Position numbers and translations under genes: made by a program. From Roseovarius sp. (GTDB taxonomy: Bacteria > Pseudomonadota > Alphaproteobacteria > Rhodobacterales > Rhodobacteraceae), in the NCBI GenBank assembly GCA_014359765.1, contig JACIYT010000001.1, positions 263,569 through 327,568 of the forward strand: a DNA stretch of 64,000 nucleotides, read 5' to 3'. Below are positions 6,724 to 8,898 of the stretch, one piece after another; positions within the stretch are counted from its first letter, which is position 1; each line of letters begins with the position of its first letter. Below the pieces are notes generated by a model. The model saw only the letters and a list, made by a program, of their open reading frames with translations. It was not told where the DNA came from and searched no databases.

Positions 6724-8367
6724 TCACACCAGGCGCGAGGTCTCGATCGCCGCGCGCACGAAATCAGCAAAGAGCGGGTGCGGCGCGAAGGGCTTGGATT
6801 TCAGCTCGGGGTGATATTGCACGCCGATGAACCACGGGTGATCGGACCATTCCACGATCTCGGGCAGGCGGCCATCGGGGGACATGCCCGAGAAGGCCAG
6901 CCCGCAGGCCTCGAGCCTTTCGCGATATTTCATATCCACCTCGTAGCGGTGGCGGTGGCGCTCGTCGATCCGCGTGGTGCCATAGACCTGCGCCACGCGC
7001 GATCCCTCCCTGAGCACGGCGTCATAGGCGCCAAGGCGCATGGTGCCGCCCTTGTCATCGCTGACATTGCGGCTCACCTTCTCGTTGCCCTGCACCCATT
7101 CCTTGAGGTGATAGACCACCGGCTCGAACCGTTTCCTGCCGGCCTCGTGGTCGAATTCCTCCGATCCGGCATCCCTGAGCCCGGCCACGTTGCGCGCCGC
7201 CTCGATCACCGCCATCTGCATCCCGAGGCAGATCCCGAGATAGGGGATCTTGCGGGTGCGGGCGAATTCGGCGGCGCGGATCTTGCCCTCGGTGCCGCGC
7301 TCGCCAAAGCCGCCGGGCACGAGAATGGCGTGAAATCCGGCGAGATGCGCGGCCGGGTCCTCGCGCTCGAAGATCTCGGCATCGACCCATTCGACCTGCA
7401 CGCGCACACGGTTGGCCATGCCGCCATGCACGAGCGCCTCCTTGATGGATTTGTAGGCGTCCTCGAGCTGAACGTATTTGCCGACGATGGCGATCCGCAC
7501 CTCGCCGTCGGTATTGTGGATGCGGTCCACCACGTCCTGCCACACGCTCAGATCGGGGCGCGGCGCGGGGCTGATCCGGAACACGTCGAGCACCGCCTGA
7601 TCGAGCCCCTCGCGGTGATAGGCCAGCGGCGCCTCGTAGATGGATTTCAGGTCATAGGCGGCGATCACATGTTCCTTGCGGACATTGCAGAAAAGCGCGA
7701 TCTTCTCGCGCTCCTTGTCGGGGATCGGCTGTTCGGAGCGGCAGACGAGGATATCGGGGGCGATGCCGATGGATTGCAGTTCCTTCACCGAATGCTGCGT
7801 CGGCTTGGTCTTGAGCTCGCCGCTCGCCGCCAGATAGGGCAGCAGCGTGAGATGCATGAACAGGCATTGCCCCTGCGGGCGGTCATGGCTGAATTGCCGG
7901 ATCGCCTCGAAGAAGGGCAGCCCCTCGATATCGCCCACGGTGCCACCGATCTCGCACAGCATGAAATCGACCTCATCCTCGCCGATGGCGAGGAAATCCT
8001 TGATCTCGTTGGTCACATGCGGGATCACCTGGATCGTCTTGCCCAGATAGTCGCCCCGGCGTTCGCGCTCCAGCACGTTGGAATAGATCCGCCCCGCCGA
8101 GATCGAGTCGGTCTGCCGGGCGGGCACGCCGGTAAAACGCTCGTAATGGCCGAGGTCGAGATCGGTCTCGGCCCCGTCATCGGTCACGAACACCTCGCCA
8201 TGTTCGAAGGGCGACATGGTGCCGGGATCGACGTTGAGATACGGATCGAGCTTGCGCAGCCGGACCGAAAAGCCGCGCGCCTGCAACAGCGCCCCGAGCG
8301 CCGCCGAGGCCAGCCCCTTGCCGAGCGAGGACACCACGCCGCCGGTGATGAAGATGTAACGCGCCAT
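6724..8367 (-). CDS. pyrG: CTP synthase
   Basis: [18 protein letters not shown]; GICLGMQ; HRHRYE; QYHPE. Confidence 0.98.
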
Positions 8368-8478
8368 GCGGCTGGCCTCCCGTGATGCCTGCGTGGTCCG
8401 GTCAAAGCCCCGGATGACCCCCGAAAAGCCACCCGATCACGGGATTTGACCCATAAAGGATTCGGCGCCCCCGTGCAA
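8368..8478 (-). promoter_or_regulatory. pyrG promoter and SD-sequestering leader hairpin
   Basis: TTGCAC(8478-8473)-17nt-TATGGG, then TCAAATCCCGTGAT. CCCGTGAT (8443-8436) is complementary to ATCACGGG (8386-8379), which overlaps the GGGAGG SD. Confidence 0.55.
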
Positions 8479-8529
8479 GGTGGCCCCAGATCATGGTGCG
8501 GGCGCGATGACGCCCGCAAGTCATGGTAT

Positions 8530-8898
8530 TCAGTCGGCGCGCGGCGTGAGCGGCGCGCTGTCGCCTGCCGGCGGCGGCAGGAGGCCTTCGGCATCCGGCA
8601 GCCCCGGTGCGACCGGGGCCGCAGGCGCCGGTGCGCCGGTCTCGCCCATCCGGTCGAGCACCGAGACGCCGGCCGCGTCCCTCGCCGCGATGATGGTGAG
8701 GGTGATCGAGGTCACGATGAAGGCGGCCGCGAGGATCCAGGTGAGCTTGCCGAGCGCGGTGGCCGCCGCGCGGCCGGTGATCGCGCCGCCGCCGCCCCCG
8801 CCAATGCCGAGCCCGCCCCCTTCGGAGCGCTGCATCAGCACCACGCCGATCAGGCCGAGCGCCAGCAGCAGGTGAATGGTCAGGACGACATTTTCCAT
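8530..8898 (-). CDS. secG: Preprotein translocase subunit SecG
   Basis: IGVVLMQRSEGGGLG; LGKLTWILAAAF. Confidence 0.95.
   Translation of the reverse strand: MENVVLTIHLLLALGLIGVVLMQRSEGGGLGIGGGGGGAITGRAAATALGKLTWILAAAFIVTSITLTIIAARDAAGVSVLDRMGETGAPAPAAPVAPGLPDAEGLLPPPAGDSAPLTPRAD

Follow-up and report, generated by a model that had tools for sequence, protein, structure and literature searches.

In our judgement, the chance is a little better than even that the pyrG leader of Roseovarius, and of almost all Rhodobacteraceae, senses CTP by a start-site switch, in which the choice between a C and a G as the first transcribed base would decide whether the Shine-Dalgarno (SD) sequence is buried in a 5'-terminal hairpin. 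This reading is built on the geometry of the promoter, a covarying helix that begins at the first C, a dispensable helix interior and a stepwise release of the SD sequence in calculated folds. The window, a stretch of 64,000 nucleotides from a Roseovarius genome (2.65 Mb, 68% G+C), carries pyrG on its minus strand (6724-8367, ATG at 8367-8365), encoding a CTP synthase of 547 aa with Pfam matches to CTP_synth_N (3e-118) and GATase (2e-38). The gene upstream of pyrG, and outside the proposed switch, is secG (8530-8898, minus strand; Pfam SecG, 6e-17), and the spacer between the two genes is 162 nt long on the minus strand.

We infer from these features that the start is heterogeneous and lies in a short C tract, that it depends on the CTP:GTP ratio and that it affects translation. 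The first transcribed base may be any one of three C's (8443-8441) or the G that comes next (8440). With CTP plentiful relative to GTP, C starts would dominate, and the 5' end of the transcript, CCCGUGAU, would pair with AUCACGGG and bury the first three G's of the SD sequence, allowing little CTP synthase to be made. With CTP scarce, starts would move to the G and give a transcript without the C's, in which a weak GUGAU/AUCAC stem would remain, the SD sequence would be free and CTP synthase would be translated. RNA polymerase would be the sensor and the 5'-terminal hairpin the read-out, with no repressor or ligand-binding RNA, as for pyrC and pyrD of E. coli and Salmonella.

CTP synthase sets the CTP pool, and roseobacters are an abundant family in the oceans. 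If the proposal is true, these bacteria control pyrG by a protein-free start-site switch, through which the end product CTP would regulate its own synthase directly via RNA polymerase. To our knowledge, such a switch has so far been known only from enteric pyrC and pyrD, and we know of control of pyrG only in Gram-positives (Bacillus and Lactococcus, by polymerase stuttering). A literature search returned no paper on a Rhodobacteraceae pyrG leader. The element has no Rfam entry and in kind belongs to the pyrC/pyrD class. A pyrC-like mechanism acting on CTP synthase had been put forward in the preliminary description of this leader; those of its predictions that can be examined in sequence were all borne out, while the inner helices that it drew are not the conserved ones.

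The predicted pyrG promoter and start-site tract

A sigma-70-type promoter of its own is predicted for pyrG in the secG-pyrG spacer. On the minus strand of the window, the -35 element TTGCAC (8473-8478) is followed after 17 nt by the predicted -10 hexamer TATGGG (8450-8455), with a CGAATCC block (8458-8464) between the two, and the discriminator tcaaat (8444-8449) leads into the start-site tract CCCG (8440-8443). Counted from the -10 hexamer, C7, C8 and C9 (initiating with CTP) and G10 (initiating with GTP) are the predicted alternative starts. The bases that the preliminary description had named for the promoter, the CCCG tract and the SD sequence were all found where it had placed them.

For comparison, pyrG upstream sequences were collected from 24 Roseovarius genomes, from 80 named Rhodobacteraceae genomes of about 40 genera and from 60 genera that fail a strict pattern. 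Anchoring of 103 leaders on the tract gave a gap-free alignment from -62 to +15, numbered from the first C. Conserved columns are TTGC at -35 to -32 (TTG in 101 and the C in 98 of the 103), CGAATCC at -21 to -15 (88-100 of 103 per position, and specific to pyrG), T at -12 (85/103), A or T at -11 and at -10, T at -6 (97/103), A at -3 (92/103), T at -1 (88/103) and CCCGTG, the discriminator being conserved as T..AAR-T. The -10 element occurs in two registers in the family, namely TAnnnn at -12 to -7, the type found in the window, and an extended -10, TGnTAnnnT at -14 to -6, which lies one base downstream and is found in about one third of the genera. An alternative register in the window itself, ATGGGT (8454-8449, minus strand), takes in the near-invariant T8449. 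The canonical +1, 11 nt past the A at -11, falls on the first or second C of the tract.

The CCCG tract stands at a constant distance from the conserved -35 and -10 elements in more than 150 genera. The pattern TTG-N12-GAWTS-N15-CCCGTG has matches in 172 of the 301 genera of the family, roughly one per genome, whereas a reversed control gives almost none, and within the genome of the window it matches at pyrG only. Where the pattern fails, the blocks largely persist: 55 of the 60 pattern-negative genomes whose pyrG upstream region was examined still have CCCGT/CACGGG-like blocks and belong to the aligned set, and L163 has neither block. A few genera, such as L164, lack CGAATCC but have the remainder of the motif. 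Since the pyrG motif is single-copy per genome, there is no regulon that would point to a protein.

A strict sigma-70 scan of the window called no promoter at the pyrG leader because TATGGG, a poor match, lacks the final T; the promoter call therefore relies on the family-wide TTGC-N17/18-TA...T arrangement at a fixed register. A second candidate -10, CTTTAT (8458-8453, minus strand), lies 3 nt further upstream and, if real, would place the start at the conserved A8446, in which case all transcripts would carry the C's. The G at position 10 of window-type promoters is also far from the optimum. Among metagenome contigs, a search with the 3'-block pattern gave 80 loci, 49 of them real leaders and none with an end at the tract, and no pyrG entry was found in the published transcription start site (TSS) tables of S. 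meliloti, B. japonicum and agrobacteria.

It seems improbable to us that transcription starts elsewhere, at an upstream promoter or by read-through from secG, and that the helix described below serves inside a longer transcript, in processing, stability or factor binding. A GC-rich hairpin (GCGGGCG, a 6-nt loop and CGCCCGC; 8498-8517, minus strand) lies 13 nt beyond the stop codon of secG; as it lacks a U tract, transcription of secG may run on into the pyrG leader, and the conserved purines at -3 and -2 (A and R) could be taken as starts. These purines, however, are only 3-5 nt past the -10, and the conserved bases 5' of the C's show no pairing. Moreover, the leader stays with pyrG at loci with a different upstream neighbour and the TTGC-N17/18-TA..T geometry moves with it, and pyrG of M. 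extorquens, which adjoins secG, has a TSS of its own.

Helix P1 and its conservation

The 5' strand of the closing helix P1, CCCGUGAU (8436-8443, minus strand), is the exact complement of AUCACGGG (8379-8386, minus strand), with 8443-8436 facing 8386-8379, so that the pairing between 5' end and SD sequence that had been claimed holds base for base. The 3' strand overlaps the SD sequence GGGAGG (8376-8381, minus strand), which stands 8 bases before the ATG and whose first three G's pair with C8441-C8443. The family consensus of this strand is UCACGGGRG, with CAC-GGG near invariant, and in 78 of 100 sequences the distance from the first G of the CACGGG block to the ATG is 14-16 nt.

Pairing was counted in 153 non-identical leaders, with the 3' strand anchored on its G-run only and the partner bases left free. 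Pair 3 is G-C in 151 of the 153; pair 4 is U-A in 139 and U-G in 13; pair 5 is G-C in 139, G-U in 6, A-U in 5 and A-C in 2; and pair 6 is paired in 69% (A-U, G-U or G-C). The association at pair 5 gave a Fisher p of 1.4e-4 with the out-of-family locus L029 omitted, which leaves four A-U. In register, the free pairs were complementary at a rate of 0.926 (93%), against 0.26-0.60 with the partner slid by 1-3 nt. The comparison of Rhodobacteraceae leaders that the preliminary description had named as a check on the stem thus found P1 both conserved and covarying. Positions -2 and -3 are unpaired, which puts the helix boundary at the first C. A pair at -1 (U with R) was considered as part of the helix, but it showed no association beyond base frequencies (p = 0.58) and is therefore not counted.

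A protein tree of pyrG from 130 loci implies at least seven origins of U-G at pair 4, at least four of G-U at pair 5 and no fewer than three of G-C at pair 6, and wobble-preserving changes in P1 have at least 11 origins. Compensated changes from G-C to A-U are found in L121 and in the CCCGUAG group (L155, L165 and L168), only about two compensated double changes being clearly independent, and an uncompensated A-C occurs in two lineages (L003 and L083). It is this comparison across leaders, and not folding energy, that leads us to judge P1 as more than chance: folding of the window's leader by itself was unremarkable against dinucleotide shuffles (z = -1.18 for the C start and -1.82 for the G start). 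The aligned leaders indicate that P1 is a real helix of 7-8 bp starting exactly at the first C.

The two strands differ in what they tolerate. The 3' strand accepts wobble freely, while CCGU on the 5' strand is found unchanged, and in a constant promoter register, in 161 of the 162 family loci examined. As a C-to-U change would still pair, this invariance suggests an extra constraint on the start-site DNA, and the asymmetry points to a constraint there beyond base pairing.

This evidence bears on the alternative of a fixed start, probably at the first C, with a constitutive hairpin that protects the 5' end and keeps basal translation low, or that is opened by temperature, an sRNA or a protein, the polymerase not being a CTP sensor. 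The helix does start with the predicted +1, fold predictions have it form in most species, and pairing with the G's of the SD sequence would account for the C's; that the three C's might be conserved simply through this pairing counts against the switch. E. coli pyrG, too, starts in CCC without a known switch, and since its start, CCCGU, has no SD pairing, the C tract may serve another purpose. A fixed start nevertheless does not account for the constancy of G4 and U5 or for the lack of C-to-U changes, both seen in 161 of 162 loci, when wobble is free on the 3' strand. It likewise gives no account of the exact pyrC geometry of the tract, or of a CC-purine sequence at an equal promoter distance in other Alphaproteobacteria, where the read-out differs. 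We regard a fixed start as rather unlikely, though with a probability that deserves notice. What probability remains beyond the start-site switch, the fixed start, a start elsewhere and the two further alternatives weighed below belongs to chance or to something unforeseen.

Calculated release of the Shine-Dalgarno sequence

The cost of opening the SD sequence, taken as the free energy needed to make its six bases single-stranded, was calculated for each start position in 100 leaders. The median cost was 7.5 kcal/mol for a start at the first C, 5.4 at the second, 4.1 at the third and 3.3 at the G (n = 100), and it was flat beyond the G; the cost falls by more than 1 kcal/mol in 84% of the leaders. 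The claim that a G start shortens the stem and frees the SD sequence is thus upheld in silico, with a fall of the median from 7.5 to 3.3 kcal/mol. For the leader in the window the calculated cost drops from 9.5 kcal/mol (C start) to 5.8 kcal/mol (G start), and the cost that the G-start transcript retains counts against the switch.

Over 100 C-start leaders, the median probability of P1 is 0.99. In an 84-nt construct of the window, the MFE structure uses GGCUUUUCG with the SD sequence, not P1, the probability of which is 0.01 in this short construct; with 38 nt of coding sequence added, P1 is in the MFE structure or at most 0.3 kcal/mol from it.

The same calculation for E. coli pyrC gave 5.4, 3.35 and 2.45 kcal/mol. 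Moving from a C to a G start lowers the opening cost by about 4 kcal/mol in Rhodobacteraceae, compared with 2.9 kcal/mol in pyrC, suggesting that, by this one yardstick, the modelled switching amplitude of the Rhodobacteraceae leader equals or exceeds that of the validated pyrC system.

Some further pairings involve the start codon. GCC is common between the SD sequence and the start codon (8365-8375 in the window, and in most leaders; 55-64% per position), a GCCA/UGGC mini-hairpin over the AUG is predicted in many leader folds, and in the window the 5'-CCGUG is also able to pair with CAUGG at the start codon.

The interior of the leader

The region enclosed by P1 is 7-91 nt long (median 51) and has no conserved core. 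In one genus, L164, the leader is just an 8-bp stem closed by 3 nt, the bare hairpin CCCGUGAU-CGC-AUCACGGG, 19 nt overall, and the whole element, located about 45 nt before the ATG, reads TTGCCG-N17-TATCAC-tcgact-CCCGUGAU-CGC-AUCACGGGGG-ccgggc-ATG. The loops of L156 and L144 are 17 and 23 nt. L164 thus has a natural, pyrC-like minimal form of the element.

In the window, the interior contains a local hairpin, P2 (8412-8434, minus strand), made of GGGUGGC, a 9-nt loop and GUCAUCC. P2 is lineage-specific, the region being otherwise variable in the family. The inner helices that had been proposed to extend the stem, GUGG/CCAC and GGUCA/UGACC, can form and are part of the MFE structure of a 115-nt transcript, but the two nearest relatives, L002 and L031, do not keep them and support instead the GGGUGGC/GYCRUCC hairpin (8434-8428 with 8418-8412 in the window), in which P2 is kept with G-C/G-U and U-A/U-G changes.

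A leader whose enclosed region binds CTP, another nucleotide or a PyrR-like protein would be expected to keep such a region, and the partly conserved RUGCUGCGG after the tract, together with a hairpin at that place in many leaders, could be read in this way. Yet the interior of 7-91 nt lacks a conserved core and is nearly absent from L164, L156 and L144, and this variability, with the bare hairpin in one genus, argues against an aptamer. Furthermore, a search of Rfam with E up to 10 gave three weak and unrelated matches, none in the leader core and none to a pyrimidine leader, and a terminator scan found its only terminator-like site inside pyrG, with no U tract after the helix. We hold a riboswitch or protein-binding leader to be very improbable.

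A degenerate class-wide pattern, CCCGTG-N30-60-CRYGGG-N10-14-ATGRC, gave mostly chance matches in GC-rich genomes and was uninformative.

The bases after the C's read GUG-RUG-CUG-CGG (8428-8440 in the window; +3 to +14 in the family), so that a G-start transcript would open with two start-like codons in one frame. The frame from the GUG of the tract runs for 4 to more than 120 codons and in some species continues in frame into pyrG. A leaderless uORF from GUG or RUG was considered and rejected, as its length and the position of its stop vary and a control frame is at least as open; this argues against a leader peptide.

Comparison with enteric and Bacillus systems

In E. coli pyrC, C starts at a high CTP/GTP ratio add two C's that complete an SD-blocking hairpin (PMC6524683). 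The E. coli pyrC promoter reads TATCCT-ttgtgt-CCGG and the window TATGGG-tcaaat-CCCG; in both, a six-base stretch with a final T separates the -10 from C7 and C8, and a G comes after the C's. As in pyrC and pyrD, the 5' C's would pair with the G's of the SD sequence, no protein or aptamer would be needed, and the SD release calculated from C to G start is similar to that of pyrC. Unlike pyrC and pyrD, the target here is pyrG, encoding the CTP-making enzyme, the host belongs to the Alphaproteobacteria and the start shift is a proposal. The leader also differs from pyrC in having three C's, with three graded steps, where pyrC has two, and a stem of 7-8 bp that usually closes a variable domain of 40-90 nt, where pyrC has 5-6 bp and a 15-nt loop.

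The E. coli pyrG promoter (L312:3711-3745, minus strand) reads TTGTGG-N17-TATACT-gcttt-CCCGUCUUGG. It shares with the leader studied here the gene and a T-CCCGU sequence 5-6 nt past the -10, the E. coli start having been mapped in the C tract, and its spacing, with T-CCCGU 5 nt past the -10, is exactly that of the TGnTAnnnT-type promoters of Rhodobacteraceae. By contrast with the window, the 5' end of E. coli pyrG has no SD complement, and its SD sequence lies in a local hairpin whatever the start. In the fold, that 5' end pairs with GGCGGG at codons 9-10. No description of a CTP control mechanism for E. coli pyrG was found in the literature.

Reiterative transcription at pyrimidine genes is well established: at pyrBI, codBA and upp, UTP-dependent slippage releases non-productive transcripts, and pyrG of Bacillus subtilis and Lactococcus is controlled by CTP-sensitive reiterative transcription with antitermination. 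The Rhodobacteraceae leader shares with these pyrG systems the gene, the effector CTP, the initiating polymerase as (here putative) sensor and a homopolymer run of three. It departs from Bacillus in having CCCG in place of GGGC, in lacking the intrinsic terminator read-out, whose 5' strand in Bacillus is the complement of poly-G, and in a mirrored sign logic.

These systems suggest a further alternative, in which the polymerase slips on CCC at high CTP or low GTP, either releasing poly-C or adding extra C's to the 5' end. Such added C's would extend pairing into the G-run of the SD sequence (CACGGGGG), a mirror of the poly-G of Bacillus pyrG. The run of three identical bases is present at the predicted pyrG start of the window, and a G rather than an A follows CACGGG in two thirds of the leaders, with a G one base further in 93%. 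Slippage on a template-strand GGG has been shown structurally (PMC8812562), and in E. coli pyrG, where the initiation region, that is, the first three transcribed bases, is CCC, 5'TNET-seq recorded 10.1% slippage (PMC12709180). On the other hand, C/G tracts slip poorly compared with A/T tracts (PMC12709180), the A that follows GGG in one third of the leaders, including the window, would mismatch an added C, and the non-productive version leaves the SD complement unexplained. CTP-dependent slippage, in either version, is in our view a quite unlikely basis for the leader, and the start-site switch, strengthened by the comparison of leaders, is to our mind the best interpretation at hand.

pyrG start regions in other Alphaproteobacteria

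One genome was taken from each of 29 alphaproteobacterial families outside Rhodobacteraceae. CC directly precedes the pyrG start codon in 18 of the 29 families, and the exact arrangement TAnnnT-N6-CC-ATG, giving C7, C8 and the A of the AUG, is found at pyrG in 15 of them; only six other sites with this arrangement occur in 265 kb of the same loci. In the loci concerned (L313, L316-L318, L320-L323, L325-L329, L332, L336 and L028), the element is found about 20 nt upstream of the pyrG start codon. Mapping in Methylorubrum extorquens DM4 placed the primary TSS of the gene 2 nt ahead of the ATG (positional uncertainty, 3; PMC9320726, supplement). The experimental 5' ends from E. coli and Methylorubrum show that promoters of pyrG built in this way fire at C's, in DM4 by the position of the TSS alone.

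Like the window, these near-leaderless pyrG genes have C7 and C8 followed by a purine at the same distance from the -10. Unlike in the window, the purine in these genes is the first base of the ATG itself, and they have neither an SD sequence nor a long hairpin. A purine start would there give a leaderless mRNA beginning with 5'-AUG, while a C start would put one or two C's before the AUG, and the presumed read-out is loss of the 5'-terminal AUG. The comparison shows that the layout of C's followed by a purine recurs with quite different read-outs.

On these grounds we suggest, tentatively and as a possibility we would not rate as even, that a C tract with a purine 6-9 nt past the -10 is a general hallmark of pyrG in Alphaproteobacteria and perhaps in Proteobacteria. 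The polymerase would be the CTP sensor throughout and the read-outs would be lineage-specific: an SD hairpin in Rhodobacteraceae and a leaderless AUG in many other families, with the same T-CCCGU start surviving in E. coli. If true, this wider reading would explain how Gram-negative bacteria control pyrG, for which we found no mechanism described. Such parallels between Rhodobacteraceae, other Alphaproteobacteria and E. coli suggest a more general principle, and also a compact CTP-responsive expression part for synthetic biology.

Elements upstream of the promoter

The palindrome GCAACAnCATnTTGC and the CGAATCC block were also considered as marks of a regulon, which was rejected because both are essentially single-copy and found at pyrG only; a pyrG-specific factor may still act at either site. 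In most genera a 17-bp palindrome, CGCAACAnCATnTTGCG, lies just upstream of the -35 element and is intact in, for example, L008, L011 and L014. At 8486-8500 (minus strand) of the window it is degenerate (CGCACCATGATCTGG), as it is in the nearest relatives. The palindrome is conserved in sequence, not in pairing alone, is approximately single-copy per genome, and could be an activator or UP-like site, or a 3' hairpin of secG.
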